DNA of 64,000 nucleotides from an uncultured virus (IMG/VR IMGVR_UViG_3300013102_000031) (Duplodnaviria > Heunggongvirae > Uroviricota > Caudoviricetes). How positions within the stretch are numbered: position 1 is the first letter of the stretch; each line of letters starts with the position of its first letter. The stretch is taken from the IMG/VR virus record IMGVR_UViG_3300013102_000031; one strand, given 5' to 3'. Under the pieces are notes generated by a model. It searched no databases. It was not told the DNA's origin and worked only from the letters and a program-made list of their open reading frames with translations. Below, in pieces: positions 2,940-64,000 of the stretch. A program made the translations under genes and the position numbers.

Positions 2940-3187
2940 AGCCCCACGAGATTGACAAGATTAAAAGTTTAGATCCTACAGGCTGCAACGGCACTGTGCA
3001 AAGTGTTCTGATGAATCCTAATATCAACCAAGCACATTATGCAGAAGTGTTGTATTATTTGTTGAGTAAGGTGCTTGAAGAGAAGGGGTATCTTGAGCGT
3101 GCTAGTAATGCCATGACTAGGGTGTTGCAAGCTAATGGGTTGGTGGATGAATTGAATAAATGTCTTGAATTGGAGGAGAAACTATGA
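2936..3187 (+). CDS. hypothetical protein
   Basis: AAGGAG RBS, GTG start. Confidence 0.7.
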   Translation: MKPHEIDKIKSLDPTGCNGTVQSVLMNPNINQAHYAEVLYYLLSKVLEEKGYLERASNAMTRVLQANGLVDELNKCLELEEKL

Positions 3188-3441
3188 ACTACATAGCAGA
3201 AAATGTTAAAGTATTCTTTGGAGATATTGAAGTTACAGGTTATGCACTTGCCGACCCAATCTATGCAAATCGTGAACGACTGTGGTACAAGGATATTGAA
3301 GGAAAACCTTTCACTGTACTTGCAACTTGTGAAGATTACACTGTAGTAGAGGTTCCTTTCAATGAATTAGGTTATGAAAAGCATATTAAGCCGATGAAGC
3401 CAACTGTTAAGAGTCCATTTAAGTGTGTGGTGGAGAAATGA
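3184..3441 (+). CDS. small protein with tail-tube-like N-terminus
   Basis: NYIAENVKVFFGDIEVTGY resembles the N-termini of the tube-like proteins at 62616 and 63113. Confidence 0.55.
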   Translation: MNYIAENVKVFFGDIEVTGYALADPIYANRERLWYKDIEGKPFTVLATCEDYTVVEVPFNELGYEKHIKPMKPTVKSPFKCVVEK

Positions 3442-3641
3442 TTTCTCATCTAGACTATTTAATGAGTCTTCCACAAGTACATAGGGAAATTTATGGTTAC
3501 GAAGAAGAAAACAAACCAAATGATTATTGTGTCTGGACAGATATTGGTTATAGTAAGAGTCTAATGGCTTGGGTTGAAACTGATGAGCACTTTAGAGATA
3601 GAATTAAAGAAATAAAGCTTGACTGTAAAATAGAAACATGA
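3438..3641 (+). CDS. small protein with baseplate-like ETDExxRxR motif
   Basis: GGAGA RBS, ATG 3438; VETDEHFRDRIK. Confidence 0.55.
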   Translation: MISHLDYLMSLPQVHREIYGYEEENKPNDYCVWTDIGYSKSLMAWVETDEHFRDRIKEIKLDCKIET

Positions 3642-3717
3642 GACATTGGTGGTGTAGGGATTTGTAGGCAGGAAAAGCGGGATAATTATTAAATAACCAG
3701 TAGAAGGAAACAAGTGC

Positions 3718-4542
3718 ATGGGAAGTCGCGAAAGGGCGTTTGTAGTACAAGTTGACGGTCAGGATATCGCCGTTCCCCGTAAACGTGTTCGTAAGGATAA
3801 GGTTGGTAAACCTGCTGTAAACCATAAGTATGATGATGAAAAAGAGTTTAATTCGTTGCACTTTAAGCCTATTGGAGAGGCACAAACGCTTGGGGCACAG
3901 TATCTGCAAGAAGGCCGTAAAATAGTTGCACTACAAGGCCCAGCCGGTGGTGGCAAGTCAATTCTAGCTGCATGGCACGCTGCAAACCTGTTGAAAGCTA
4001 AATCTATCCATAAATTGTTCTTGGTTCGACCTTATGAGTCTTGCGGGCGTACAATCGGGGCGGTTCCCGGCACGGAAGGAGAAAAACTCTCCGTTATCTT
4101 CACCAGCATCTTGGAGCATCTGACCAAGTTCCTTGGTAAAACGCAATTGTCTTACATGCTTGAGAAGAAAGTAATCGAATTCAAAAGCGTCGAATGGATG
4201 CGCGGTTATTCCTTTGAGGACGGCGTTTTTGTCTTGTGTGAAGAGGTGCAGGGATTCGATACTGACCTTATGCAAATGCTGACAACTCGTATTGGTGATG
4301 GCGCGCAACTTTGTATGACGGGTGATTGGCGTCAAAAAGACATCCGCAAGGAAACTGGGCTTAAGTACTTGAGTGAAGTTGTAGAGGCTGCAAATAACAC
4401 ACCACCAGAATTTCTTGATGACGAAGATATTCAGGAAATCAAGAATAACATTGGGTTTGTGAATTTTACATTTGAGGACAGTGGTCGTCGAAGTAAGTTG
4501 ACTAAAGCACTTGTGAAATTGTTTTACTACGAGAAGGGGTAG
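3718..4542 (+). CDS. phoH: PhoH-family ATPase
   Basis: Walker A GPAGGGKS, LVRP, GAVPG, MRGYSF, EEVQ, TRIG, TGDxxQxD motifs. Confidence 0.93.
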   Translation: MGSRERAFVVQVDGQDIAVPRKRVRKDKVGKPAVNHKYDDEKEFNSLHFKPIGEAQTLGAQYLQEGRKIVALQGPAGGGKSILAAWHAANLLKAKSIHKLFLVRPYESCGRTIGAVPGTEGEKLSVIFTSILEHLTKFLGKTQLSYMLEKKVIEFKSVEWMRGYSFEDGVFVLCEEVQGFDTDLMQMLTTRIGDGAQLCMTGDWRQKDIRKETGLKYLSEVVEAANNTPPEFLDDEDIQEIKNNIGFVNFTFEDSGRRSKLTKALVKLFYYEKG

Positions 4543-4544
4543 TT

Positions 4545-5363
4545 ATGGAAGTCGATTCAACAAGATGGGAGATTATAAAAGAATGGAAAGAGGGTAGACG
4601 CCACTACCTAGAAGTTAAGTGTAATATTTGTAATACACACTTTGATAGATCACGAAAAGAGCAAATCTTTGGAAAGGTTCTTAGGCAGTGTGAATGCGAT
4701 AAAACTGTGCGTGGAAAGCCATTTGAAATAGGTGAGCGGATTGGTAAACTGATAGTTCTGGAAAGAGATAACAGTATTACGGATAATAAACATGTTTGGT
4801 GGAAGGTAAAGTGTGATTGTGGAGAAGTTAAATCCTTACAAGGTAGTCAGTTGAGGAACGGTACAACTTCAACATGCGGATGTTTGCTTTCTGACAAACG
4901 TGGAGGTAAAAGAGAAAAGCATGGCAGGACTAAAACAAAAGAGTATAAAATTTGGACTAGTATGTGTGGTAGAGTAACAAGACCAGACGAAAGTACCCGT
5001 AAATGGTATTTTGACAAGGGTATTGGTGTTTCTTCTGAGTGGAGAGCTGGTTTTACACACTTCTATGAGGATATGGGAGACTGTCCAGAGGGGTACTCTT
5101 TAGACAGAATTGACCCATCAGGTGATTACTGTAAAGAAAACTGCCGCTGGGCTTCTCTTGAACTTCAATCTATTAACAAAGGATTGTTTTGCAATAACAC
5201 AAGTGGTAAGACAGGTGTTTCCTTGAATCAACACGGAAAATATATGGCTTACATTTACAACAAGGGCGAGAGAATCCATCTAGGGAGTCATGCAACTTAT
5301 GAATCAGCAGTCAAAGCACGCCTTGAAGCCGAAGAAAAATATTGGGGAGACATTAATGAGTGA
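4545..5363 (+). CDS. free-standing HNH homing endonuclease with C-terminal AP2 domain
   Basis: CDCG and TCGC repeats, SLDRIDPSGDYCKENCRW, NNTSGKTGV...HLG...AVKARLEAE. Confidence 0.9.
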   Translation: MEVDSTRWEIIKEWKEGRRHYLEVKCNICNTHFDRSRKEQIFGKVLRQCECDKTVRGKPFEIGERIGKLIVLERDNSITDNKHVWWKVKCDCGEVKSLQGSQLRNGTTSTCGCLLSDKRGGKREKHGRTKTKEYKIWTSMCGRVTRPDESTRKWYFDKGIGVSSEWRAGFTHFYEDMGDCPEGYSLDRIDPSGDYCKENCRWASLELQSINKGLFCNNTSGKTGVSLNQHGKYMAYIYNKGERIHLGSHATYESAVKARLEAEEKYWGDINE

Positions 5364-6126
5364 AGATAATATCGTTCCATTCTTTCAACCAAACAAAACG
5401 TTCACAACAGAATTTCGTGGTGTTCGGTATGATTACTACTTGACTGGTGAAATTGGCAAGGCTGAGGATTATGTAGACTTGTGTAATATTCTGCGTAGTG
5501 CATCGGCACAAGATGAGGTGGTGATAAGAATCCGGAGTGGCGGCGGGTCTGTACACACAGGCAATATGATCATCAACGCTATTAGTGAATCTGAGGCTAA
5601 TGTCGTTGGGTTCATTGAAAGTGACTGTGGTAGTATGGCTACGTTCATCTTCTTGGCCTGTCATACTTGGGGCGTTTCAGACACTGCTGAGTTTTTCTGT
5701 CACACTTGTAGCTATGGTTCTTGGGGTAAGGAACATGAAAATTTTGCACAGGCTGAGTTTATTCGTAAACAAGCACACAAACAGATGCGTGCTCGATATG
5801 AAAACTTCCTCACAACTCAAGAAATCGAAATGGTCATTTCTGGGACCGACATCTATCTAGATGCTGATGAAATTATGCAGCGACTTGAAGGGTATTCGGA
5901 AGCTCGAAATAATAAGCCTTGCGACTGTGGCTCAGAAGATTGTCCTCAAAACCAACGCCTCGCAGCTCTCCAAGAGGAAGAAGACTTCGACGACATGCCA
6001 ACACTGGAAGACATGATTTCTTCCGCTGTAGCTTCCGGTATTGAGCAATATGAAAAGAAACGACTTGCCGCTGATAAAAAGGTCACGAAGGTAAAACCAG
6101 CAAAAGTAATCGAAAAATCTGAATAA
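5356..6126 (+). CDS. clpP: ClpP-like serine protease
   Basis: IRSGGGSV, CGSMAT (catalytic Ser), FFCH (His); start refined to ATG 5356 after GGGGAG. Confidence 0.85.
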   Translation: MSEDNIVPFFQPNKTFTTEFRGVRYDYYLTGEIGKAEDYVDLCNILRSASAQDEVVIRIRSGGGSVHTGNMIINAISESEANVVGFIESDCGSMATFIFLACHTWGVSDTAEFFCHTCSYGSWGKEHENFAQAEFIRKQAHKQMRARYENFLTTQEIEMVISGTDIYLDADEIMQRLEGYSEARNNKPCDCGSEDCPQNQRLAALQEEEDFDDMPTLEDMISSAVASGIEQYEKKRLAADKKVTKVKPAKVIEKSE

Positions 6127-6131
6127 AGAGC

Positions 6132-6160
6132 TTGCATTAAATACGTGGGAGGGGTAAAAT
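6132..6160 (+). promoter_or_regulatory. sigma70-like promoter (TTGCAT-17-TAAAAT)
   Basis: Intergenic, precedes AAGGAG RBS. Confidence 0.65.
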
Positions 6161-6193
6161 TCTCCCACAAACTTAAACCAAAGGAGAATTAAA

Positions 6194-6403
6194 ATGGGTG
6201 AATTTACAGCGTGGCTTTGTTGTATGATTTTTGTTGCACTTGTGTCAGTTAACAATACAACATTCCGTTTCGATGCAAACGATGCAGTTAAAATGCTAAA
6301 TGAAGTATGTTCCAAGAATGGCGGCATTGAATATTCCAAAGTGGACATTGACAATTGGTTGTTTACTTGTAAAGATACTGCTAAATGCACTGTTAAACGT
6401 TAA
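6194..6403 (+). CDS. small membrane-anchored protein
   Basis: RBS; N-terminal hydrophobic segment, Cys residues. Confidence 0.7.
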   Translation: MGEFTAWLCCMIFVALVSVNNTTFRFDANDAVKMLNEVCSKNGGIEYSKVDIDNWLFTCKDTAKCTVKR

Positions 6404-6414
6404 GGAGAAATTGT

Positions 6415-7446
6415 ATGATCAGCGCACAAGAAATAGAAGAACTTATCGCAGAACAACAAGCTGACCTTGCTGCACAGGAACTGCTAGAGAATTCTGAGGA
6501 AGAAGAATGAACATCTTTGATAAATTATACGAAGTTCCAGATGAAGATGGACACCTAGAGCCAGTGTTTGATATTGATCCGTATATTTATTTAGAACTAG
6601 ATCTACATTATGCCCAAGGAGAGATGTAATGGATTTTGATGAATTTATTAGTTACCTGAAACAAAGCCTACCAGATAATGTTGACTGGTATGTAGACCAG
6701 AGCAGGTTCAAAGGTAATGATCTTGTAGGGGCAACCATTAAGTTTAATTTTCCTGTACAACAGGACGAGGAAGAATAAAATGCCACTATACATGTTAGTT
6801 AAAGTAGACTTCGAACATCGTGAGAATATGGGATTGTTTGATACACAGGCTAAGGCGCTTGCTTTGCAGACATCACTTGAGCTAGAATTATTTGACTCAG
6901 GTAGTTTGGCTGGTATTAGTTTCTATGTAGAGGAGCACTTTGTTAAATGAATTATGAACAAGATCAGCTAGAGGGGTTGGAATCATCTTTGGAACATTGG
7001 ATTCTGTCAGATGAAAAAGATATGGTAGATACTTTTGGTGAAGATCTGGTAGTGGCTGTAAAAGAGGCTTTGCACAATGAGTGACTTCAGTAGTTGGGAA
7101 GATTTAAAAGAGTGGTTATCTGATCCTGAAGATAACTGGAATACCGTAAGTTATCATGCTTGGACTTGGGGTAATTCTTACATGTCTTGTTATGATGAAG
7201 ACTGTGGTTGTTCAGATGATTTCGAGACTGTAGAAGACGCTGTGGAAAGTATTAGGGATTATTGCGGTAACAAACTTGAGTTGGTAATTAAGAATGACTG
7301 ACCACGACCGATGGCTTGACCAAGATTTAGATGATCACTACTTAGAACTTCTTGAGTCTGGCCTTGAAATACCCTGGCCCGATGAACCAGCAATAGAACC
7401 AAATAACGATTACGATGATTATGACGGCTGGGATGACATGCAATGA
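6415..7446 (+). other. chain of seven coupled acidic microproteins (6415-6510, 6507-6629, 6629-6778, 6780-6950, 6947-7084, 7077-7301, 7294-7446)
   Basis: Translated by hand; overlapping or abutting start/stop codons, most with RBSs; most are missing from the ORF track. Confidence 0.7.
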
Positions 7447-7628
7447 TGAGGGTAATTAAAATAACTCCTCACATCCCTTATTATCTAGCCGAAGGAAACG
7501 TTGTACAAAGTAAGTGGAGAGAACCTTTCGTAGACAGAGTTGGTAATAAAGCAACGCTAACGAAACTAGAAGTGCTTACGAAGAAAGGGAAGATTGTAGA
7601 TTACACAATTCAAGTTCAGTGGGAGTAG
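7443..7628 (+). CDS. hypothetical protein
   Basis: Coupled ORF. Confidence 0.6.
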   Translation: MMRVIKITPHIPYYLAEGNVVQSKWREPFVDRVGNKATLTKLEVLTKKGKIVDYTIQVQWE

Positions 7629-7633
7629 AGATT

Positions 7634-7939
7634 ATGGCTGAGAAGAAGCAGAGAGAAATCAAAGTAAGTTATATCTCCTACGAGGAGTATACCCAGTATG
7701 ACTACGTGGATGTTGCAACTTGGTTCATTGTAAATGCTCTTCAACAATATGTCTATTTTCACACGTCGGATCGTGCAGAGGCTCAGCGAGTTTGTAATGA
7801 TCTATACGGAGTAGGATTTTATACAGTAAAGACCTCAAAAATTCAGAAGACTAAATCAAGTCGTGAGGATGGCGGATATTCAGCTTACGGGTCGAATAGT
7901 CGTAAAGGGTTTGCAAGTCAGTTGAAGAAAACAACATGA
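7634..7939 (+). CDS. hypothetical phage protein
   Basis: GGGAG RBS, ATG 7634. Confidence 0.7.
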   Translation: MAEKKQREIKVSYISYEEYTQYDYVDVATWFIVNALQQYVYFHTSDRAEAQRVCNDLYGVGFYTVKTSKIQKTKSSREDGGYSAYGSNSRKGFASQLKKTT

Positions 7940-8352
7940 AGTACGATAAACTCTACATGGACTTAGCTTTACGAGTTGCACAGGAGAGTAAATGCCCACG
8001 TAAAGCTGTAGGTTGTGTCATTGTACCAGAATCAGGAATGTTGGCAGTTGGTTTCAATGGTCACGCATCAGGTGGTCCCAATATATGGGATTATTCAGAA
8101 GACGGAAATCCAGAAGTAGTACATGCAGAATTGAATAGTTTAGGGAAAATGCTAGAACAAGGGGTTAGTGCTAAAGGATCCACGGTCTATGTAAGCTTGA
8201 GTTGTTGCCTTGATTGTGCTAAGCTTCTTGTACGTGCCAAGGTAAGTCGAGTTGTTTATTTGGAGAGTTACAGAAAGACAGATGGGCTGGATTATTTGAG
8301 AAAATACAATATTTGTGTAGAACAATTTAAAGGAGAACAAAATGAAAACTAA
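7936..8352 (+). CDS. dCMP deaminase
   Basis: S-x-C-x-R-x-x-VG, GFNG, HAE, and CCLDC (PCxxC-type) zinc motif. Confidence 0.92.
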   Translation: MKYDKLYMDLALRVAQESKCPRKAVGCVIVPESGMLAVGFNGHASGGPNIWDYSEDGNPEVVHAELNSLGKMLEQGVSAKGSTVYVSLSCCLDCAKLLVRAKVSRVVYLESYRKTDGLDYLRKYNICVEQFKGEQNEN

Positions 8353-8764
8353 AGTAAGTGCTTGGAAAGACGAAGACATTGTAGATACTCGCAAACTCCA
8401 AATCTTTAGCTTGTGTCAAGTAATGGCAGCTTTCCATTATGAACTTGTAGAGTACAAAGGCCACGCTTCACGATTTGAAAGTACCCACCGCTCAAATAAA
8501 GGTCGTAATGTAATTAGCTGGTCTAAGGCCATTTCGCTCTATAACGGTGATTCTGTAAAATGTGTATTTGGTCGTCCTCCTAATCGTTTGACATTGTGGA
8601 GTTTTACCGACTACCAAGTAACACAAGCCAAGGCTGCAAGGATAGTTAAACAGCTCAAATTGCAGTTCTGTCGTCAAACCAAACAGGTGATTGTACAAGA
8701 TCATCGTGTTGAATTTATTACCCCTTCGTATAAAGCTCTATTCCTCGGGAATAAGTATCTATGA
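8342..8764 (+). CDS. hypothetical protein
   Basis: AAGGAG RBS, 140 aa. Confidence 0.7.
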   Translation: MKTKVSAWKDEDIVDTRKLQIFSLCQVMAAFHYELVEYKGHASRFESTHRSNKGRNVISWSKAISLYNGDSVKCVFGRPPNRLTLWSFTDYQVTQAKAARIVKQLKLQFCRQTKQVIVQDHRVEFITPSYKALFLGNKYL

Positions 8765-8949
8765 ACAGATCGATTATCTATGTCTGGTCATCAGGATTTT
8801 GGATATTTGGAGTAGATTATCATCACGGTACACATTCAGCTTTAGGTAAGTATCAAGAAGTTATTCTTGGCGAAGGATGGCATAGACAGGAGATTACTTT
8901 GATGGTGAATGACTTCATTGAAGAGAATCTATTGCTGTGGGAAGATTGA
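8761..8949 (+). CDS. hypothetical protein
   Basis: ATGA overlap. Confidence 0.6.
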   Translation: MNRSIIYVWSSGFWIFGVDYHHGTHSALGKYQEVILGEGWHRQEITLMVNDFIEENLLLWED

Positions 8950-8960
8950 TAGAAATTTAT

Positions 8961-9003
8961 AAGCTCTGAGGCTCTTGTCTCGGGGCTTTTCTTTTGTTAA
9001 AAT
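8961..9003 (+). terminator. intrinsic terminator fused with a sigma70 promoter (TTGTCT-17-TAAAAT)
   Basis: AAGCTCTGAG/CTCGGGGCTT stem plus T-tract; -35 spans the loop and right arm. Confidence 0.65.
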
Positions 9004-11380
9004 TATCTTATAAATTAACTAGGAGGCTACATGATCTACATAACAGAAATGCTGCGTTGGGGTGATGATGAATCCCACCATTATATCATTGGAGCATACT
9101 CAACCAATGAAGAAGCCTCTTACGCAGGAGAATTTCGTGAAGATTTGAATAAGATCAAGCACTTAGCTTATAATTTTGACTCAGATGGTGTTATTGATGC
9201 TATACGAACTCTAGAAAACAAAATGTTTGAGGTGTAGGTAATGAGTAAGAAAGGAAATCCTGATTTTAAACCAATGACAGACCAGCAAAGGGAGGAAGCA
9301 CACCTAAAACGTCTAGCTGACCAAGAATATGCTGTAAATCACCTGATAATTGAGTACAAAGATGCCGATTATTGGCGTTCATTAGCCTCAGAACAGGGGT
9401 TGAAGATGCCTAATTGGTGGATAAAGGGGGTAGAAGTTAAGTATATTCGGAGGGCTTGTAAGAAACTTGGAATTGATGTAGCTGAATATGTTGAGTCCAC
9501 TGGCTTTAAAAACCTTAAAGAATTCACTGAAAACAATGAAAAATGGACAGCTTTTGCCCATGTAGGGTTGGTTTTAGAGTTTTATAAAGAGAATACAGCT
9601 CAGAAAGGTTGTTAGAATCAATTGAAAGTGGTAAAGTTAAGGTAGTTTTTGATGTATTCAGCTCGATTAACATTAACAGAGCCCGGTAGTGGCTCTTAGG
9701 AGAAACAGATGCTTATCCTATTGTATTTTATCGTTGTAATTGTTGTTTCATACATCCATGCACACGGATGCTACGTCAAGGGAACTAAATATCCGTGGAA
9801 AGAGGATGCGATCCTATGCTTTCTTTGGCCCATCACATTGCCTATAGGTATTTGGATGATTATTGCATCGGAGAGTAGACCATGACACTAGCTGAACATG
9901 AAGATCGTCTTGTTAAAGACGAAGAATACCGTAGTAAATGGATTGATGAAGAAGTTCGCAGTTCTTCTGAGTGGTTTGTGCAGCAACTCAGCACTAAACA
10001 GAAGGATACACAAACAGTAACTTAGTGTGGAGAGTGAAATGACTGCGAATCGTCAGCTTGCAGAACAACGGGGTTTATCTGAACACCAAATTCAAGAGAT
10101 TGATCGTCTGCACGAACATCTTGACAAAACAATGGACTACTTTATTGAACAAGGTTGGACACAAGGACGGGAAGATGAAATTCATGATATCGAATACCTC
10201 TTGCAACAAGCTTGGGGTTTTCCTAAAGACTGTGGATACCATCGTTATGCACACCAATATGCTTTTGTCTGCCAGTGGTATGGGCGTACATTCAAGTGTG
10301 TAGAAACTGGGAATAAGATTACACTAGGTAAAGATATTCAAGAACGTCAATACATTTCTTTTGGTAATTGTGCAATTGACTTGGGTGTGTTAAACGGTTA
10401 TTCTCGTCGTATCGGAAACATGGAGGAGATTAAATGATAACAGATAAACAGAGGTTCGAAGAGTTTACTAGAAATGAAAAAGAATTTGAGAGTCAAGGCT
10501 GGGTAGTACATCACATTTGTGGGTGTGGGTACGTTCCTACGCACTCAGAGAACAGTGTGCTTATGAGGTTTGACTTTCCTTGGTGCCCTAAATGTGAAAT
10601 GAGAGACTACCGAAAGAAGTATCGTCGTTGGATTTCTCAATCTATTTGGTATAAACCACAGACATGGTTTCGCGGTTACTATGAGTGGGAACAACAATGA
10701 CCACACAATATTCACCCGAGAAACAATTGATCAAAGATTTCATCCGCTGGGCTAGTGATATGCATAAGTGTGCGATTGTGGCATTCCCAGATGAATTTGC
10801 TGCGAGTCAGTATGTGAATTACAAATTTGTCAATACATGTGAATTATTGGATGAATTTATGAAGGAGAGAAGTAGTGGGATTTAAAATAGATTTTATAGT
10901 TGAGGGTGGTGATCTTATTGATGACCATTGCAATCCCGCAATCTATACACAAGATATTAAGGTAGGTGGTAACTCATGCTCTGATACGGTGTTCCTACAA
11001 CAAGACGGACAAGTAGTGGGGTTTACTACAAGACAGTTTGAAGAGTTTATTCGTGAGGTTATGAAGTCATCCTTGTTTTGTGATTTGAGGAATGAGCTGA
11101 GGGAGGAATAATGAACCAAACAATTGAAGAAAGAATGCAATCCATTGAAGACCAACTCAAAGAGCTTCAGAAAGAACTGGAAGAATCTCTTGCGCGCTAC
11201 AACAAAAACCAGTATCCTTTTACAAATGGTGATATTAGTAAGTTCCGTAGTGGAGCTATTGGGGATATTCCTGAGACTAAATGTCTGTGGGATAGCATTC
11301 CTATAGAAGATCGTATGAAGCCTATGGGGCTAAGTTGTCCTTGTAGGAAGTGTTCGGCTTGGTGTTGAGGAGAGAAATAA

Positions 11381-11680
11381 ATGATTGTACTAAACGACTT
11401 GTGTGGTTGTGAGGATGACACTGTAATTGAAGTTGAATACTTGAAACAGTATCTACAAAACAGTATCTATGAAGCACTCAGTAAAACAGAACCTATTACC
11501 TATGAGCAATCAATTAAAATTATGGAGGGGCAATATAGGAAAGTTCTCATGGGTGCTTACACAAACCCTGAATATGATCCACAAGTGAAATGTACACTTG
11601 AAGAAGATGGAAAGATGAATGTAACCTTCTTGTGTCCACAATGGATTGCTGATATGATTAATGAAGATGGACACCATTGA
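11381..11680 (+). CDS. small protein resembling a tail sheath C-terminal segment
   Basis: VEYLKQYLQNSIYEALSKTEPITYEQSIKIMEGQYRKVL matches the recalled DUF3383-type sheath C-terminal pattern. Confidence 0.5.
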   Translation: MIVLNDLCGCEDDTVIEVEYLKQYLQNSIYEALSKTEPITYEQSIKIMEGQYRKVLMGAYTNPEYDPQVKCTLEEDGKMNVTFLCPQWIADMINEDGHH

Positions 11681-11859
11681 TGAAGCTGTTACTTATAGGA
11701 GTAATTTTAATTCTTACAGCATGTGACAATAAGCCTAAGACTCTTACTTGCACATCATCAACACCAAAAGGTTGGGTCACATGGGAGGAAGATGGTGGTA
11801 AAACTATTTGTTGGAAAAGTAAAGGTTTCCAATGTGCACCTAAATGTAAGGAGAAATGA
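11677..11859 (+). CDS. small lipoprotein
   Basis: Signal peptide with lipobox LTAC. Confidence 0.7.
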   Translation: MMKLLLIGVILILTACDNKPKTLTCTSSTPKGWVTWEEDGGKTICWKSKGFQCAPKCKEK

Positions 11860-12099
11860 GAATGTTAAAAGATACAGGTTTGAAAGAAGTTTTTGTTGTT
11901 TCTAATAAAGTATATATTGTCTTTCATGAACCAACAGAAGAGGTCGGGTTAACTGTGGATGACCTGCAAGAATTACTTTTGCTGTTGGTTGGAGAATAAA
12001 GATGATTGAAGGACTAAAGCTAGCTCTAAAGCACTGCACCAAATATGAAGACAGGATGTACTTGTCTTTCTTGATTAAAGTGTATGAGAGGAACAACAA

Positions 12100-12372
12100 A
12101 TGATTCTAGACTTGAAAGATAAAACAGAGTGTCGATTCAAAACACTTGAGGATATTCCGGGCTTTGTAAGTGTGCACGAAGAGGTTAGTGACTTCTTAAC
12201 GCTCAAGCTGACTATCATCTGTGATGACCCTAAAGACTTTGCCGAATATCTGTATTATAATCTACCCTCTGGTTGTAGACTTGTTGGAAGTACAACAGTT
12301 ACTATCTTGACAGATCTTGTTCAGTATGAGATTGGGGGTATTGATTATAAGTTTGATTGGGAGAAATCATGA
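12100..12372 (+). CDS. small protein resembling a baseplate J internal domain
   Basis: DFAEYLYYNLPSGCRLVGSTTVTI aligns ungapped to the J protein in this window, 10/24 identical. Confidence 0.6.
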   Translation: MILDLKDKTECRFKTLEDIPGFVSVHEEVSDFLTLKLTIICDDPKDFAEYLYYNLPSGCRLVGSTTVTILTDLVQYEIGGIDYKFDWEKS

Positions 12373-12627
12373 ACAAAACAGAACTTATAGGAGCAGCAAT
12401 AGCTATAACACTTATGCCTTGTATTATTGGGGTTTGGATGGTTTATAATTTGAGAGGTAAGAAGTGAGCTTATTTGAAGATTGGTATATTACAGTTCGAT
12501 CAGGCCCAGACATCAATGTCTATGATGATTTGAAACTAGACCAAGAAGGTGAGTATTATTACCAAGAAACCTTTTGGATGCATAAAGCATTTCTTGCTGG
12601 GCAAATAGTGTGTGAAGAGAAGAAACA

Positions 12628-13011
12628 ATGACAGACACATACGAACGTTGTTCCTGTGGCGCTAGAGATAGGGCTAAGTGTAGCAAGGAGAGTTTATCAG
12701 GTGGCGGTAAGCTGTGTGTAAAAGACTTGAAAGAGGAGAAAGTAGGTATTAAAGTTAACATGGAAGATATTGGTATTCCAAAATACGATCTATTTGGCGA
12801 GCTGTTCAAGCTAGGTGTCACACAAGTAACTGAGAAATGGCATGACCTTCTGATTGTTGAGCTTATCCTTGAAGGAGATTTTAAAGATGAGGATATTGCT
12901 AAGTGTCTTTATAAGAATTCTCCAATGATGTATAGACATGTGGGTGACATCACTCAGACAGTTGAAGGTGTGAATGGCATGTTGTTTAAATATGGGTTTA
13001 CGAGGGGATAG
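12628..13011 (+). CDS. protein with Cys-rich N-terminus and baseplate J-like C-terminal domain
   Basis: DIAKCLYKNSP...FTR aligns ungapped to J DIANAIWDNKP...FSR, 10/38 identical. Confidence 0.6.
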   Translation: MTDTYERCSCGARDRAKCSKESLSGGGKLCVKDLKEEKVGIKVNMEDIGIPKYDLFGELFKLGVTQVTEKWHDLLIVELILEGDFKDEDIAKCLYKNSPMMYRHVGDITQTVEGVNGMLFKYGFTRG

Positions 13012-14221: not shown

Positions 14222-14323
14222 GTGCACTTTCTAGTCCTATTAACTCATTAGTGTGGTGCAGCTACTATTGCTGTGGGTGCACCTCATTTTTGATAATATT
14301 ATATACGTGCGGTGGAGTGTGAA

Positions 14324-14890
14324 ATGATTCAAGAAGAAATATTGACTGAAGTCTGGAAAGATATTGAAGGGTATTCCGGCTATCAAGTTAGTAACATGGG
14401 AAGAGTTAAGAGTCTTGTAAAGGCTTACAGACGTGAAGAGATTATTCTTAAAGGTAGTCCTAACACAACAGGTTATATTCTTGTACAGCTTTATCCTGAA
14501 CCAAGACAGCGTAAGTCACTGCTTGTGCATAGGCTTGTTATGCTAACCTTTCAACCTAATCCAATGATGGATGAACTGGAGGTGAATCATAAGGATCTAG
14601 ATACAACTAATAACAAGATGTCTAATCTTGAATGGGTTACTCAAAAGGAGAACAAAGAGCACTATCAGGCAAGTGATAAGTTTAAGACTGTAATCATTAA
14701 AGTGCCCAAAGGTGAGGAACAACATCTATCAAAGCTTACGGAGAAACAGGTGATCGAGATACGCAGACTGTATGCAGCTAACGAACACGGTACTAGGAAG
14801 AAACTAAGAGAGACTTATGGTGTAAGTGAAGGTTGTATTCGTAACATTCTTGACGGAGTTACTTGGAAACACCTTCTTCCAGAAGTGTAA
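14324..14890 (+). CDS. NUMOD4-HNH homing endonuclease
   Basis: EVWKDIEGYSGYQVSNMGRVKS; VHRLV...VNHKD...NN..SNLEWVT..EN; C-terminal HTH. Confidence 0.92.
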   Translation: MIQEEILTEVWKDIEGYSGYQVSNMGRVKSLVKAYRREEIILKGSPNTTGYILVQLYPEPRQRKSLLVHRLVMLTFQPNPMMDELEVNHKDLDTTNNKMSNLEWVTQKENKEHYQASDKFKTVIIKVPKGEEQHLSKLTEKQVIEIRRLYAANEHGTRKKLRETYGVSEGCIRNILDGVTWKHLLPEV

Positions 14891-25035: not shown

Positions 25036-25419
25036 TTACCAATCAATATCAATTGTGTATGTACCAGCTTCAATCAGCTCCATTCGGTACAGACTGTTTG
25101 CAACCATTTGAACATCTGGATAGAAGTTACGGCCCCAGAACAAATCAAGGAAACGTTTATCTTCTTGATCACCATTCCACTCTTTCGGGTCACGTTCAAG
25201 CCACGCTTTAAAGCTTACACCCATTTCCTCGCCATTGATTACTTCGGGGACAGAGTCGTTTTCGTAATCATCCGCATCATTAGGAATTGTAAGCTTAACA
25301 CGTTGACGGTCTTTACAACCATCTTGTTGTTGGAAGCTGTAGGGACGACCATAAGTGGTTTCTACCAAATTATCCCAATCACCTACGTCAATGACTTGTT
25401 CTGTTCTTGCAATCTTCAT
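25036..25419 (-). CDS. acidic hypothetical protein
   Basis: AGGAG RBS, 127 aa. Confidence 0.75.
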   Translation of the reverse strand: MKIARTEQVIDVGDWDNLVETTYGRPYSFQQQDGCKDRQRVKLTIPNDADDYENDSVPEVINGEEMGVSFKAWLERDPKEWNGDQEDKRFLDLFWGRNFYPDVQMVANSLYRMELIEAGTYTIDIDW

Positions 25420-26705
25420 AACATTCTCCTAAATAATTTGTTTTACACACATCTGTTCTGTGCATGGCTGTAAGATTAGCTGATTAGATTGGATGCGTCA
25501 AGGGTTTATCACTGCAACCCTGCGAAATTCTCTCCGAAAAATGATTGCGTTAGGCTCCACTTTCATCCACGCAAAGCAAGGTGTAATCTTGAACACTTTT
25601 CCTGTGTACAAATAAGAACCGTTATCAGCACCAAAGACTACGTTATCACCTTCCCTGATTTGTGTGTTGTTTACGTCTAGTGGTAAAGTGGGTAACATCT
25701 AATTTCTCCCTGTGCGTTTATCATTGCTTGAGAACATGATAAACAAAATCATTGTCGGATATAGTAGAAAGCAGAACAATAGAAACATCTTATTTCTCTC
25801 CATTATCAATAAAGAAACGACATTTGCTAGTATCAGGAACGCTTACTATCTGCACAAGCCAAGGTTGATACTTAGCGAGTGGTGGTACAGTGAATCGTAA
25901 GCAGCTATCACGTTTTAGGCAGTCTGTGCCGACACATTTACTGTACACGCTCACTCTTCCTCCCATTGCCTATCTTCATAATCGCTAAATTCACACAACA
26001 GATTCCAGTAAGCATCAAAGCTTACATATTGTCCAAACTCTGTTGTAATTTTCTGTACAGATGCTTGACCAAAGTCGTGGTATTCTACTTTGAAGTCGTA
26101 ACGCCTTGGATTCATGTGTTCATTGCTGCTCATTTCAGTTCCTCAATTACAAAATCATTCTGGCTATCAAACAGTCCTTTACCATCAGCGAAATAATCTC
26201 GATATGTTGTGTGCATGTGTAATGCGAAAGCATTCTTAGCAGCACCAACCGTAGCCCAACCACACTTTGACCCAAATTTGATAAGCTTGCCTGTAGAAAC
26301 TTGTCGAATCACATAAACAGATGTTACTTCAAATGCACGACTCATTTCCACACCTCACAAAATTCAACTTCATCGACCCAATACTCAATATCGGAGATCT
26401 TATAATTCGCTTGCAGATATTCACGTGCTTGATTAGCTGTGTCCATTGTAGAATAGATACCAAGATTACTTCGTGCATAGCGTGTCCCTGTCCACTCATC
26501 ACAGACAATTATGAATAAGCTCTTTGGAGCTTCCATCTGATTTCTCCTTAGTAAAAACTATCACGATAGCTATCAACTTCCTGCTGCACATATTCTTGAT
26601 ATTCAGCATCAAGATCACGCATTTGCTGATAATATTCTTTGTCAGAAATCAAACCGTCAGTGTGATCCTGTTGGATTTGTTCTGATGCTTTATCATGCCA
26701 ATTAC

Positions 26706-34493: not shown

Positions 34494-35339
34494 ATGAGAT
34501 CAAAATCAGGAGACACCCTCGGTATAAAATATAACCGATTGACTCCAATTGAAATTGCAGGCAAAAATAAACACTCTAAAACTTTAGTAAAGTGCCTATG
34601 TGACTGTGGGCAAGAATGTATTGTTATTGAGGCTAGAGTAAGGAACGGCCTCACACAATCTTGTGGTTGTTATAAGAATGAAACGACAAGTGCAAGAACC
34701 AAAATCGATATGACAGGACAAAAACTGGGCAGATTAACCTTTATTAAAGAGGTAGCCAAGCCAGAAGCACTGAGTATACATTGGGAATGCTTGTGCGATT
34801 GTGGTAATACTGCTATAATTAATGGCACTCTTGCTAGGGTTGGACACACAATGTCGTGTGGGTGTCTAAAACAAGAAAGGCTTCTTGCATCAGTCACTAC
34901 TCACGGTAAATCTTCTGATCCTACTTATTTCCTGTGGAACGGGATGCACCAAAGATGCTACAATACTAAACACCACTCCTACAAGAATTACGGAGAAAGG
35001 GGTATAAAGATTTGTGACCGCTGGCACGACTTCGAAAACTTCTATGAGGATATGGGAGACAAACCAGAAGGCTTATCGATTGAGAGATTAGATGTTAACG
35101 GTGATTATTGTCCTGAAAATTGCATATGGGACAATTCCAGTAATCAGGCGTTTAATATTAGACTGAGAACAAACAATACTTCTGGCCGAACTGGTGTTAC
35201 TCTAGACGAAGGTTTGTGGTTAGCACGAATTTGGAAAAATAAAATTTGTTATACGCTAGGACGATTTGAAAAATTTGAAGAAGCAGTCGCCGCTAGAGAA
35301 AAAGCCGAATTAGAATTATACGGATTTACCAAAGACTAG
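34494..35339 (+). CDS. HNH homing endonuclease with AP2 domain
   Basis: CDCG and SCGC repeats, YGERGIKIC, SIERLDVNGDYCPENCIW, NNTSGRTGV. Confidence 0.9.
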   Translation: MRSKSGDTLGIKYNRLTPIEIAGKNKHSKTLVKCLCDCGQECIVIEARVRNGLTQSCGCYKNETTSARTKIDMTGQKLGRLTFIKEVAKPEALSIHWECLCDCGNTAIINGTLARVGHTMSCGCLKQERLLASVTTHGKSSDPTYFLWNGMHQRCYNTKHHSYKNYGERGIKICDRWHDFENFYEDMGDKPEGLSIERLDVNGDYCPENCIWDNSSNQAFNIRLRTNNTSGRTGVTLDEGLWLARIWKNKICYTLGRFEKFEEAVAAREKAELELYGFTKD

Positions 35340-41833: not shown

Positions 41834-42145
41834 GTGACCGATATTTATAAGCTGTTTGAAAAAGAAACTTGGACACCTGATGATTGCACACCATATATTT
41901 GGTACAGAGCGTGTGTTGATGAGTTGTCCTTTAACAAAGATGATGATGTCAATAATCTAATGAATGGCGATGGTCTTACTTACTCTTATAATGTAAGCAG
42001 CGAAGTCGAGCGTGATGGCTTTGTAATCTTCACCCTACAGAATGATTATGGTGGCGAATCGTTTCAAGCTATCTTTGATATTTCTAAGAAAGTTGATGAG
42101 GACAAGTACTGGGAAGAAGTTGATAGTGAAGATGAAGAAGAATGA
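41834..42145 (+). CDS. acidic hypothetical protein
   Basis: GGGGAG RBS, GTG start. Confidence 0.7.
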   Translation: MTDIYKLFEKETWTPDDCTPYIWYRACVDELSFNKDDDVNNLMNGDGLTYSYNVSSEVERDGFVIFTLQNDYGGESFQAIFDISKKVDEDKYWEEVDSEDEEE

Positions 42146-42672
42146 AAGAACCTTGGCTAAACTACCCTCACATCTGGCCCTCCAAGAGTTCTTTCCTTAG
42201 TTTTCTGCGTGGTGGTATCAGGCGTGCTCTGTGGAACCGTTCACCTATTAAATTGGAATTCATTAAGAAATACCGACGTAAAATTAAGAATCCAAATCCC
42301 AGAGGTAAGGTAAAAGAAGTTTGGGGTGGTACTTGCAATCTGTGCGGTGATGAATTTCCAAGCAATCAGTTGAACGTTGACCACCGAGAAGGCCAGAATA
42401 GTCTTAGAGAGTTGTCAGACTTACAATCTTTTATGGAAAGTATTGTACTTGTTCAAGAAAGTGATCTACAATTCGTATGTCTACCGTGCCACAAGATCAA
42501 GAATTTACAGGAAAGGACAGGGGTAGATTTCGAGACTGCAAGGACAGAGAAACTTGTAATTGAAATATGCAAGAATAAGCAAGACAAGGCATGGCTAATC
42601 GAGAAAGGCATTACTCCACTAGGAAATGCTAAGTTGAGACGCCAACAAATCACTGAGGAGATGATGAAATGA
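42142..42672 (+). CDS. HNH-fold endonuclease
   Basis: CNLC...VDH...LQFVCLPCHKIK. Confidence 0.8.
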   Translation: MKEPWLNYPHIWPSKSSFLSFLRGGIRRALWNRSPIKLEFIKKYRRKIKNPNPRGKVKEVWGGTCNLCGDEFPSNQLNVDHREGQNSLRELSDLQSFMESIVLVQESDLQFVCLPCHKIKNLQERTGVDFETARTEKLVIEICKNKQDKAWLIEKGITPLGNAKLRRQQITEEMMK

Positions 42673-56918: not shown

Positions 56919-56920
56919 AT

Positions 56921-57295
56921 TCAATTCAACGGATCAAGAGAAATGGGTGTTGTAATTTCCCCAGTAACAACTCTTACGCTGAATACCAGAGAATACTTAC
57001 GATTTACAAAAGTAGAATTAAAGGTAACAATTTCCTTTACACCCTGCTCTTTTAATATTTCCTGTTGGAAAATCAGATCAGCCGCTGCTTTAGAAGTTTG
57101 CTTTTGTCCAAGGAGTCTTTGGAACCAAGGAACACCATAAGTAGTGTCCAAAAACCATTCTTGACGAAAAGTAAGTAAACGTATCTTTAGCCGTTGTCCA
57201 ACAGTTTCAGTAAGAGGTTGAGTTGTATCTTCTCTCTGCAATGGCCCGTTGTGCCAGATAATATCCCAAGATGCGGGCTCAAGTTTGAAGTCCAA
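56921..57295 (-). CDS. baseplate wedge / sheath initiator (gp25-like)
   Basis: QRLKIRL...EWFLDTTYGVPW; TTG start after AAGGAG. Confidence 0.8.
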   Translation of the reverse strand: MDFKLEPASWDIIWHNGPLQREDTTQPLTETVGQRLKIRLLTFRQEWFLDTTYGVPWFQRLLGQKQTSKAAADLIFQQEILKEQGVKEIVTFNSTFVNRKYSLVFSVRVVTGEITTPISLDPLN

Positions 57296-62615: not shown

Positions 62616-63113
62616 TTAGAAAATGTTACTAATAAAATCAGTTGCTTCATTTACCGCACTGTCAAATAGACTTGTAGACGGACGAGTGTTGCCACCAATT
62701 TTATATGTGTCTGTTGACTGGCAAAAGATTTCCCAACCTCTGTATTCAAAGCCACCTGAATAAGTGGTAGTTGGGTATCCAGTAATGTATGCCTCATTGG
62801 ATGAGAACACACTTCCACCAGAGCCATCTTTCAACGTAAGGGCGATCCTTGCTGTACCTTCCTCTAAATCCAACTCATGGATATATGAAAGTACATCATT
62901 AGTTGGGGAGAATTGAGCTAAGGAGAATTGAATAGTTGCTGAAGTATCTCTGTTGGGCACTCGTGTGTTTTTACCACGAATACCCCTGACAACACTAAAA
63001 CCTTTGACAGTTCTGGATATAGAGATGGATTGCCAGCCAACAACTTGATAGCCACCGATGGTGAGTTTAACATCACCGGGACTATAAGTTGTTACCGTAA
63101 AACTATTTGCCAT
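62616..63113 (-). CDS. tail tube-like protein (DUF3277-like)
   Basis: TYSP.DV...IGG, SPTNDVL, LKD.SG, AYI...P. Confidence 0.75.
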   Translation of the reverse strand: MANSFTVTTYSPGDVKLTIGGYQVVGWQSISISRTVKGFSVVRGIRGKNTRVPNRDTSATIQFSLAQFSPTNDVLSYIHELDLEEGTARIALTLKDGSGGSVFSSNEAYITGYPTTTYSGGFEYRGWEIFCQSTDTYKIGGNTRPSTSLFDSAVNEATDFISNIF

Positions 63114-63616
63114 CAGATAATTCCTTCTAGAATTGGTAGAGCACCTGTGGCAATATTAATTAAGTCTTGGAGGATACTTTGTTCATTTGCATTGCTGCCA
63201 ATGTTGATAACTGCTTGTGAACTTCTCAATACCCATGTCCGTGTATCTACAGAAGCGCTCTTTGACAAAGTTGGAAGACCCTCAATCCATGTAGTGGTAC
63301 TGAAGAATAAATCAGAGCCAGAGGAATCTTTACAGAGGAAGGCGAATTTCCCTCTTTGACTTATTTCATCAAGCTGCCAAAACTTAGTCAACACATCATT
63401 TGAGAAGGATCCAGCGTGAAGGGTCAGTGTGATTGTATAAGTCTGATCACTCTGATACAGCCTACCCATCTGACCATCCGCTGTCTTAACAGATGTGAAT
63501 GGCATCATATCTTTATTAATGGATATGAAAGTTCCATCTACAAAACCCTCAACTGGCAAGATACCACCAATAAGGCAAACTACATCGTCTGGACAGTAGT
63601 TGAAAATTCCAGCCAT
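63113..63616 (-). CDS. tail tube-like protein (DUF3277-like)
   Basis: Y.PDDV...IGG, GF.DGTFI, ITLTL, SNDVL, KD.SG, RTW. Confidence 0.75.
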   Translation of the reverse strand: MAGIFNYCPDDVVCLIGGILPVEGFVDGTFISINKDMMPFTSVKTADGQMGRLYQSDQTYTITLTLHAGSFSNDVLTKFWQLDEISQRGKFAFLCKDSSGSDLFFSTTTWIEGLPTLSKSASVDTRTWVLRSSQAVINIGSNANEQSILQDLINIATGALPILEGII

Positions 63617-63628
63617 AAAAGCTCCTTA

Positions 63629-63656
63629 GAAAAGAGAGGGCAGACAAGCTGCCCCA
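63629..63656 (-). terminator. intrinsic terminator after the major tube gene
   Basis: GGGCAG/CTGCCC stem plus TCTCTTTT. Confidence 0.7.
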
Positions 63657-63661
63657 TTCAA

Positions 63662-64000
63662 TTATGGATTCAACTGCCAGCGCGGATCAACTTCACCACC
63701 AGCAGCTTCAACTGCCGCAACTTCGGAATCACTAAGCGGAATATTGCCCCCAATAAAGAGGTCAGAACCAAACAAGTAGATAGCCCAGTCGCGGGTGCTA
63801 GTGTCTGAAGCAAATTGAACTGCTGGTGGTGCGACGATGATTGCGGTATTGGAACTAGCAACAGTCTGACCACTGGGATCTTTTAGGGTGCAGTTGAACA
63901 CCCAATCGTTATTAGTTGTGTTAGCATCAGCCAATTGCAACTGCTGTAGTACAGTATTACTTGGAGAGTACTGATGAAGTGTAATAGTTACATTCATACC
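63662..64000 (-). CDS. tail tube protein, C-terminal part (truncated by the window edge)
   Basis: VTITLHQYSPSNTVL, KDPSG, RDW motifs shared with the two downstream paralogs. Confidence 0.75.
   Translation of the reverse strand, partial: GMNVTITLHQYSPSNTVLQQLQLADANTTNNDWVFNCTLKDPSGQTVASSNTAIIVAPPAVQFASDTSTRDWAIYLFGSDLFIGGNIPLSDSEVAAVEAAGGEVDPRWQLNP

Follow-up and report, generated by a model that had tools for sequence, protein, structure and literature searches.

Probable single-module copies of contractile-tail proteins among the accessory genes of a FelixO1-like myophage

Four small genes of an uncultured FelixO1-like myophage appear to be old, domesticated partial copies of tail genes that were kept as working proteins, with predicted interface mimicry as their mode of action, a reading to which we assign a probability of roughly 0.5. 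The window, a 64,000-nucleotide stretch of the virus record IMGVR_UViG_3300013102_000031, carries its tail genes at 50.7-64 kb on the minus strand, with the sheath gene lying past the window end. A sequence-only reading had described five plus-strand ORFs, named here by their first position, as free-standing pieces of tail proteins. Their coordinates and strand were correct (Table 1). On the strand opposite to the tail module and 37-60 kb away from it, they sit among small accessory genes. When compared with tail proteins by profile and structure, as that reading had proposed, the resemblance held for 12628 (profile and fold), 12100 (profile) and 3184 (profile), was probable for 11381, and was unsupported for 3438.

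Table 1. Coordinates of the flagged ORFs and their parent genes in the window.
Feature	Coordinates	Strand	Evidence or remark
Mini-tube gene, 85 aa	3184..3441	+	hhalign, family profile
Small 67-aa gene that overlaps the mini-tube stop	3438..3641	+	tail origin unsupported
Mini-sheath gene (probable), 99 aa; similar at ~9-68 to the C-terminal-domain helix-loop-helix of sheath (DUF3383)	11381..11680	+	
Mini-J gene, 90 aa, one baseplate-J (wedge 2) internal domain	12100..12372	+	paralogue of 12628; member of family A4
Fusion gene, 127 aa: N-terminal four-Cys module (~5-32) and complete mini-J domain (~53-127)	12628..13011	+	profile and AlphaFold model
Parent baseplate J / wedge 2 protein, 479 aa	54548..55987	-	PHROG 6, E 9.5e-63
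Three tandem tube-family paralogues (phrog_280), parents of the mini-tube	62616..64000	-	PHROG 280, E 3e-33, 2.7e-32, 1.2e-14

Profile methods, not direct BLASTP, confirmed most of the claimed resemblances. BLASTP of the flagged ORFs against the 17 tail and lysis proteins encoded in the window gave nothing significant, its top match being 3438 with J over 8/16 residues (E 0.077 in this tiny 17-protein database). Searches against the parent PHROGs gave no match save that of 11381 to PHROG 205 (E 0.053 at positions 319-369). Two backgrounds served for the profile comparison. In the first, 85 small accessory ORFs were scanned without bias against 14 tail families (1190 pairs; mean score 11.5, standard deviation 2.8), and only 11381 (37.5) and 12628 (37.3) stood clear. 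Single-sequence scores for 3184, 12100 and 3438 (23.7-27.2) ranked with the highest background values, alongside unflagged ORFs that scored 26.0 and 22.9, as would be expected from chance resemblance, and the choice of best-looking matches in the original reading introduces a selection effect in the same direction. The second was a genome-wide control of 48 conserved families against the same number of small ORFs (85), where the best non-orthologous matches were sheath to 11381, J to 12628 and the three tubes to 3184. The match of J to 12100 came just behind that of one unflagged ORF, 9031-9237. This latter ORF is similar to a segment of ~50 residues shared by three larger proteins, paralogues of one another, that relatives encode.

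The two matches to baseplate J had been singled out as the strongest, and this was borne out. The products of 12628 and 12100 are paralogues (29% identity over 82 aa, E 3e-4), and a profile of their 13-member family matched J with an hhalign probability of 88.7% (P 2.6e-6, score 46.2), the runner-up among 37 families scoring only 18.2. The score of 12628 to J climbed from 37 to 46 once independent homologues were included. As a single sequence, 12100 also placed J on top (27.1 versus 17.3 for the next family), and phmmer aligned it with J of genome G005 at 339-371 (E 0.0074). In a six-frame search of five complete related genomes, the mini-J profile found the J gene in 5/5 (E 1e-6 to 8e-4), the sole further match being one mini homologue. 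Among 177,635 PDB sequences, its best match was the phi92 baseplate-region protein gp145 (340-390 of 495, E 0.057). The copied region corresponds to approximately residues 300-390 of the parent, with the hhalign alignment covering 344-387, inside the Pfam Baseplate_J match of the parent at residues 215-431 (51.9 bits). None of the 13 family members matched Baseplate_J itself at E <= 1.

Structure comparison agreed with the profiles. The AlphaFold model of 12628 had pLDDT >89 at residues 50-127 and the order helix, two strands, helix, three strands, which is that of the baseplate J/gp6-like wedge domain. Against 48,161 PDB representatives, VIA ranked baseplate chains of myophages or contractile systems in all of the first ten places. 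The best was 7yfz_A (Z 10.2, rmsd 1.9 Å over 72 residues), followed by 9cuy_T (Z 9.1) and three matches at Z 7.7, 6.8 and 6.6. Foldseek agreed, with baseplate wedge chains at ranks 1-9 and probabilities of 0.99-1.00 for the top five. Residues 53-127 of 12628 and all of 12100 correspond, in sequence signature and in fold, to a single internal domain of baseplate J/gp6-like wedge proteins (PF04865; wedge 2 gp23 of Bas63, gp22 of Pam3). However, they differ from those proteins in having one ~75-residue domain rather than four, in lacking the core-bundle helix, and in being patchily distributed outside the tail module, with similarity below the reach of Pfam's model. Family members measure 74-127 aa and lack the full multi-domain wedge architecture. 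An exhaustive search returned 28 matches, all of 49-108 aa, in which the four-Cys module and the J-like domain occurred separately; 11/28, at 74-100 aa, were the J-like domain alone. The assignment of 12628 and 12100 as paralogues carrying one complete baseplate-J domain is solid.

For 3184, the evidence emerged only with its family. Its single sequence scored 23.7 against the tube (rank 6 of 85, not above background), but the score rose to 51.1 as independent homologues were added. An 18-sequence profile matched the three tube paralogues with hhalign probabilities of 95.2%, 94.8% and 90.4% (tubeA, tubeB and tubeC), compared with 1.7% for the next family. The third of these paralogues is truncated by the window end. 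Of the 85 residues, the first ~55 alone aligned, over 42-54 columns; this part shares with FelixO1-like tube proteins (phrog_280) the motif region Y-x-P-E-D-V ... G-F-A-D-G-x-F-I. Searching the five genomes in six frames with this profile recovered tube paralogues in 2/5 together with mini homologues, and nothing unrelated. Homology of the first ~55 residues to the tube N-terminus is solid. In contrast to the tubes, 3184 sits among accessory genes, has no PHROG match, and does not reach the complete tube fold or length (~165 aa), with about two thirds of the fold gone. Residues ~56-85 instead form a strongly conserved, unrelated tail (GYxKHIKxxKPxxxSPFK) that holds most of the invariant residues of the family, which suggests that this tail, rather than the tube-like part, may be the seat of function. 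The family comprises 29 small proteins (clusters) of constant size, 80-97 aa. Comparison with the orthologue in G006 gave a dN/dS of 0.12 (dS 0.97). Constant family size and this low ratio imply that the minis are kept as functional genes.

The case for 11381 is probable and runs in one direction only. A sheath HMM of this lineage found it at E 0.0047 among 6670 ORFs (6e-5 among 85 ORFs), hhalign linked it to sheath at 72% and 62%, and its BLASTP alignments were collinear in 4/4 sheaths of relatives. In the reverse direction, a shallow 11381 profile retrieved the sheath in 0/5 related genomes. Its model (helix-helix-strand-strand, pLDDT 62.6) gave weak fold matches: the best Z was 4.8, and chains from contractile systems (Z 3.6-4.6) were interspersed with POTRA and dynein-light-chain folds. 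Entries from contractile tails or injection systems made up 17 of the 50 matches listed, and in 10 of these 17 the alignment fell at the C-terminal end of a long chain. The model also resembles small baseplate/initiator chains. Small sheath initiators (gp25-like) share the C-terminal sub-fold of the sheath. The probable resemblance of 11381 to the sheath C-terminal 'handshake' domain spans the two helices preceding the hairpin; N- and C-terminal exchange strands are absent from 11381. A second mini-sheath family, present in G002, G003 and G008, matched sheath at 81-86% by hhalign and had no detectable similarity to 11381, and a sheath piece is accordingly counted as captured at least twice independently.

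A baseplate origin of 3438 was unsupported. The ETDE..R.R motif on which it had been proposed matched over only 12-17 residues, no better than background. Its hhalign probability to J fell from 20% as a single sequence to 4.3% with one homologue added, and its score to J was 23.1 versus 20.8 for the next family. It is 85% identical in G006 with a dN/dS of 0.12; 3184 and 3438 are both real genes under clear purifying selection. Overall, chance resemblance or the decay of functionless relics is a very improbable account of the set. The falling score of 3438 fits it, but the scores of 3184, 12100 and 12628 rose with independent homologues, reverse genome searches with the mini-tube and mini-J profiles matched parents only, and both the strong fold match of 12628 and the clear purifying selection on 3184 and 3438 oppose it. 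Chance, the fall-back of the sequence-only reading, is excluded for 12628, 12100 and 3184 and unlikely for 11381, and remains the best reading of the tail resemblance of 3438, which is itself a real gene.

Relatives carried the fragments in differing combinations. G004 has only the mini-tube, G005 only a homologue of 3438, and G003 and G008 each have a mini-J; the 3184 and 3438 pair occurs together in two lineages and apart in two. The five genes are not contiguous, and the minis are patchily distributed in a mosaic region. Given the different subsets in G002-G006 and G008, the genes do not form one co-inherited multi-gene system, and the earlier description of them as a system was not supported. 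The flagged genes have small-protein families in metagenomes, but no deposited phage genome or cultured phage was found with them, and the mini families, lacking Pfam or PHROG annotation, so far have metagenomic relatives only.

This distribution also bears on whether the minis serve their own tail, either as minor parts of the virion or as factors for its assembly (caps, initiators or chaperones, for example). Contractile tails are built of duplicated modules, and the available text of the structure papers describes Bas63 wedge 1 as repeating wedge 2 domains and the Pam3 sheath initiator as having the same strand-exchange hairpin as the sheath. The likeness of the 11381 model to initiator chains points the same way. 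However, the genes lie on the opposite strand, far from the tail module and among small accessory genes. Because close relatives with orthologous tails lack the minis or have other subsets, the minis cannot be essential tail parts, and we consider a role as own-tail helpers improbable.

Our preferred reading is that the four genes would each retain a module that contacts other tail subunits in the parent, separated from the remaining protein. Specifically, 3184 joins the first third of a tube protein to a new conserved tail, 12100 and 12628 each carry a single entire internal domain from baseplate J (wedge-2 'D3'-type), and 11381 probably represents the helix-hairpin core of the C-terminal sheath domain, all of them being separate single genes in a fast-turnover accessory pool. 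Structural papers on Pam3 and Bas63 place a wedge domain of this class in the trifurcation unit, with docking sites joining neighbouring wedges and fibres, and describe a sheath that grows by strand exchange onto a hairpin belonging either to the sheath or to its initiator. If the parental interface module is kept while the remaining protein is missing, a mini could occupy a surface that receives tail subunits without carrying assembly forward, by capping or decoy binding. The candidate surface would be found either on a tail-assembly intermediate (a rival's or the phage's own) or on a host protein recognising tail folds. Since the minis are only about 20-30% identical to their parents, conservation of the parental interfaces is putative. 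Interface mimicry is our best guess, with exaptation for an unrelated role nearly as likely.

Contractile tails are known to have expanded through duplication of their own modules within the tail operon; here, tail modules occur as free-standing, selected small proteins of the accessory gene pool. This pool is the usual place of counter-defence and inter-phage competition genes. The minis resemble known anti-defence proteins acting by mimicry or as decoys (DNA mimics such as Ocr; nucleotide sponges) in being small, patchy, under purifying selection and located in a hypervariable accessory block. The mimics described in the available part of an anti-defence catalogue are DNA mimics, with no virion-protein mimic mentioned there. 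A bolder proposal, which we consider unlikely, is that phages maintain a shifting toolkit of interface mimics (tube, sheath and wedge sub-domains), expressed apart from the tail operon, that would poison or cap the contractile tails of co-infecting relatives, tailocins or type VI secretion systems, or blind immune sensors of tail folds. Were this so, the twice-captured sheath piece would reflect repeated selection for one trick. Action on tail assembly or on tail-protein sensors would place the minis in a new class of phage weapon and would also supply ready-made inhibitors of contractile machines.

Exaptation is a tentative alternative: illegitimate recombination would have captured fragments of tail genes, which then served as stable scaffolds for unrelated accessory functions, with function residing in the added parts. 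Both added parts are consistent with it: the non-tube tail holds most of the conserved columns of the mini-tube family, and 12628 is fused to a Cys module found by itself or with other partners in 17/28 of the matches from the exhaustive search. However, the J-like domain stands without an added module in 12100 and P0004-P0011, tail families gave the top fragment matches among the 48 conserved families, and the capture of three different tail proteins, with the sheath piece taken at least twice, exceeds what reuse of any stable domain would lead one to expect. If the minis do not act on tail assembly or tail-protein sensors, they offer a clean example of orphan phage genes arising from pieces of structural genes. 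The unflagged ORF 9031-9237 suggests that domain fragments are general raw material in this region, as exaptation would have it.

The window belongs to a FelixO1-like myophage. PHROG scans of it placed replication and nucleotide-metabolism genes in a + strand block at 31-50 kb and lysis and tail genes in a - strand block at 50.7-64 kb. The latter contains spanin, endolysin, fibres, wedge 1 (253 aa), the baseplate J (wedge 2) protein, an HNH gene, a gp25-like wedge subunit, hub, tape measure, chaperone and three tandem tube-family paralogues (phrog_280), while the sheath gene lies outside, past the window end. By its J protein, the nearest named phage is Pseudomonas phage vB_PsaM_M1 (65% identity), followed by Otagovirus-like and Felixounavirus-like phages. 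The five small genes that a sequence-only reading had put forward as copies of tail-protein pieces, named here by their starts (mini-tube 3184, 3438, probable mini-sheath 11381, and mini-J 12100 and 12628), sit among closely packed small ORFs in a + strand accessory block that also encodes PhoH, HNH endonuclease, a ClpP/S49-like protease and dCMP deaminase. Five HNH endonuclease genes occur within the 64 kb; one separates the gp25-like gene from J, and another adjoins PhoH. A strong terminator-like hairpin within the accessory block may split it into two transcription units. A promoter scan gave counts at the chance level (46 against 44.5).

Coordinates of features in the window and in related sequences (G and L numbers denote related viral sequences and their loci)
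Feature	Position	Strand	Remarks
Baseplate J / wedge 2	54548-55987	-	479 aa; PHROG scan
HNH endonuclease	4545-5363	+	
HNH endonuclease	14312-14890	+	
HNH endonuclease	34494-35339	+	
HNH endonuclease	42142-42672	+	
HNH endonuclease	55971-56924	-	
Terminator-like hairpin	8961-8988	+	12 pairs, T-run; promoter-like sites after
3184+3438 cassette	3184-3641		counterpart L037 6001-6431
Four-Cys module	12640-12725		C-x-C-x7-C-x11-C; 12628 residues ~5-32, fused to mini-J
Second small sheath-like family	G003:76196-76414		73 aa
Second small sheath-like family	L002:3040-3267		
Second small sheath-like family	G002:83110-83460		
Sheath gene of G004 (L012)	G004:45775-49791	-	
ORF 25036	25036-25419	-	127 aa; conserved family phrog_27943, E 5e-49
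ORF 9031	9031-9237	+	
ORF 26342	26342-26536	-	

Pfam gave no tail family for the five flagged ORFs or for 13 members of the mini-J family, none of which reached its Baseplate_J model. Of the five, only 11381 matched a PHROG, and weakly (tail sheath phrog_205, E 0.053, profile positions 319-369). No significant match came from BLASTP of the minis against the 17 tail and lysis proteins of the window, the best being 16 residues of the 3438 ETDE motif against J (E 0.077 in a tiny database). Protein-atlas look-ups of 3184 and 11381 returned no usable named match, and the mini-tube and 11381 profiles found no tail protein among PDB sequences. HMMs for 12 tail families, derived from the window and the complete relatives G002-G005, were run with HMMER filters off against all 6670 six-frame ORFs of those five sequences. 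The top non-self matches were exactly the flagged genes: J matched 12628 (E 0.0057) and, with the same J region, 12100 (E 1.1); sheath matched 11381 (E 0.0047) and an ORF of G003 (E 7e-6); and tube matched 3184 (E 0.087) and its G004 homologue (E 2.9). The same order, behind two true orthologues, came out of a broader comparison of 48 conserved families with the window's 85 small accessory ORFs (sheath to 11381, E 6e-5; J to 12628, E 6.8e-5; the three tubes to 3184, E 0.005-0.011; J to 12100, E 0.013).

The choice of ORFs in the sequence-only reading carries a selection effect. When the 85 small ORFs were compared with 14 tail families using hhalign (1190 pairs; mean score 11.5, sd 2.8), 11381 (37.5) and 12628 (37.3) stood well above the rest, followed by 3438 (27.2), 12100 (27.1), the unflagged ORF 25036 (26.0) and 3184 (23.7), with more unflagged ORFs just below (22.9 and 22.8). 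Because unflagged ORFs score alike, three of the five are inseparable from background as single sequences, and it is the addition of independent homologues that decides between background and homology.

Independent homologues bore out the proposal that 12100 and 12628 carry the same internal domain of J. The two proteins are paralogues (29% over 82 residues, E 3e-4), and an exhaustive search with a profile across 1.84 billion representatives yielded 28 proteins, each of 49-108 aa; 11 match the J-like domain at the C-terminus of 12628 and the others its N-terminal Cys module. A 13-sequence mini-J profile aligned to J residues 344-387 (hhalign 88.7%, P 2.6e-6, score 46.2; the runner-up of 37 families reached 18.2). 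Searched in six frames against complete related genomes, it matched the J gene in all five (E 1e-6 to 8e-4), and the sole non-J match at E <= 0.1 was a mini homologue in G003; G008 also carries one. Its best match among PDB sequences was phi92 gp145 (340-390 of 495, E 0.057). In 17 of the 28 small proteins, the four-Cys module stands by itself or is joined to other C-terminal parts; it is also present in L004, G002 and G003.

Structure pointed to the same domain. The AlphaFold model of 12628 was confident over residues 50-127 (pLDDT 89-98) and of low confidence in the four-Cys module. Myophage baseplate chains filled Foldseek ranks 1-9, led by a chain of Felixounavirus Bas63 (E 0.003, probability 1.00). 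In an independent fold search, baseplate entries occupied ranks 1-10 among 48,161, including Pam3 7yfz_A (Z 10.2, rmsd 1.9 Å over 72 residues), PhiTE (Z 9.1), XM1 (Z 7.7), Bas63 (Z 6.8) and E217 (Z 6.6), with the first unrelated folds at Z 5.0. Wedge chains that contain the domain include long ones and short ones of 148-190 aa, which agrees with the available text of the Bas63 paper, where D1 and D3 of wedge 2 recur in wedge 1. We label the copied domain 'D3' only from residue ranges and the accessible portions of the Bas63 and Pam3 papers. A single co-folding run of J with the mini-J domain, made without controls, scored 0.00, which counts neither for nor against binding.

The claim that 3184 resembles the tube N-terminus also held once homologues were added. 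A profile search of a 5.8-billion collection returned 29 clusters of 80-97 aa, with the tube N-terminal motif plainly visible in several members. An 18-sequence profile matched the three tube paralogues at 95.2, 94.8 and 90.4% (P 2.7e-8 to 1.4e-6 over 42-54 columns), the following family reaching 1.7%. In five complete genomes, this profile found mini homologues in G004 and G006 and tube paralogues in G005 (E 0.001) and G002 (E 0.014), with no match beyond these two classes. The neighboring ORF 3438 behaved differently. Its likeness is limited to E-T/N-D-x-H-L/F-R-x-R, which recalls a J motif at residues 277-288, and its hhalign match to J fell from 20% alone to 4.3% once the G005 homologue was included. 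ORF 3438 is a real gene with no demonstrated status as a tail copy. Neither 3184 nor 3438 evolves neutrally, with dN/dS of 0.12 for each relative to G006 (Nei-Gojobori; dS 0.97 and 0.77). The mini families, too, are argued to be real genes by their constantly small size and by motifs conserved over 30-90% identity.

Evidence linking 11381 to the sheath C-terminal segment was consistent but weaker than that for mini-J or mini-tube. Forward comparisons supported it: in addition to the HMM match, hhalign gave 72% with the lineage sheath alignment and 62% with a deeper one, and 11381 was collinear with the sheaths of four of four relatives (28-37% over 52-58 aa). However, a word-index search for homologues found nothing beyond two near-identical proteins, and the shallow 11381 profile recovered sheath in none of five genomes. 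The model of 11381 (helix, helix, strand, strand, helix) was of middling confidence (pLDDT 62.6) and its fold matches were weak (best Z 4.8). Among the 50 matches listed, 17 were contractile-tail or injection-system entries, and 10 of those were long chains in which the alignment fell on the C-terminal 60-90 residues. Going by entry titles, we take these long chains to be sheath proteins.

Searching G002-G005 with the sheath PHROG recovered their sheath genes and, in the accessory block of G003, a small ORF matching sheath positions 357-417 that is collinear with relatives' sheaths (26-31% over 60-61 aa). This second sheath-like family occurs in G002, G003 and G008 and matches sheath at 81-86%. 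It has no detectable similarity to 11381, so there seem to have been two or more captures of a sheath segment. At L002, the ORF of this second family separates sequences that are contiguous in the window at about 6508/6510, and the family thus behaves as an insertable cassette. The sheath gene of G004 is split by a group I intron (Rfam RF00028, 95.3 bits, E 5e-24) followed by a 260-aa HNH ORF, and its 102-codon exon 2 starts approximately where similarity between 11381 and sheath begins. That 11381 might descend from such an intron-split exon is an unproven idea. J and the relatives' sheaths share an inserted domain, with J HMM positions ~139-240 matching sheath residues ~80-180 (E 1.5e-5 to 0.0065) and the sheath HMM matching reciprocally.

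The minis were distributed patchily. A scan of viral contigs for neighboring PhoH yielded eight loci, one from the same phage; G001, the one DNA relative for 11381, 12100 and 12628, was 99.956% identical to the window across 13.8 kb. At the remaining loci, PhoH DNA was 74-91% identical, the block was otherwise mosaic, and most minis were missing. The 90-kb relative G006 carries the 3184+3438 pair at 79% and 85% protein identity, beside a PhoH of 30% identity; PhoH, HNH and protease around the cassette together span only 30-36%, a sharp mosaic boundary. G004 has a mini-tube without a 3438 homologue and G005 the reverse, and the mini-J and mini-sheaths occur in different subsets of relatives. 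Given this patchiness, the five genes do not form a system inherited as a unit. Among 50,697 deposited phage genomes, there was no DNA or protein match to the block, 12628, 3184, 11381 or a mini-J relative.

Each solid case retains a discrete piece of a tail protein that polymerises or docks, and these pieces are under selection within a hypervariable block. Duplication of tail modules inside the tail operon is well known, and tail modules as selected small accessory proteins are a new variation on it. Full-text literature searches turned up no description of free-standing copies of tail sub-domains among accessory genes. According to the available text of the Pam3 paper, docking sites that link neighboring wedges and fibres lie on the wedge trifurcation unit, and the sheath grows via strand exchange onto a hairpin of sheath or initiator. 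A free domain that accepts such tail contacts without passing them on could act as a cap or competitor, or it could stand in for the tail protein at a host sensor; the accessible part of a 2026 survey describes Avs sensors recognizing conserved core folds of virion proteins, the tail tube included. Putative mimicry of interfaces is the most likely mode of action on our analysis, with a probability of roughly 40%. Exaptation of tail pieces for an unrelated role comes close behind, mainly because the most conserved part of the mini-tube is not tube-like: its tube-like part comprises the first ~55 residues only, and its invariant columns fall mostly in the C-terminal tail.

Other small ORFs in the window showed fragmentary resemblances. 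ORF 25036 weakly resembles the gp25-like wedge subunit (hhalign 17.9%, 20 columns). ORFs 9031 and 26342, which Pfam did not name, resemble a C-terminal piece of ~50 residues from three larger G002 paralogues of 202-231 aa (E 0.012-0.058), and, judging from these alignments, may be additional fragment-derived genes.
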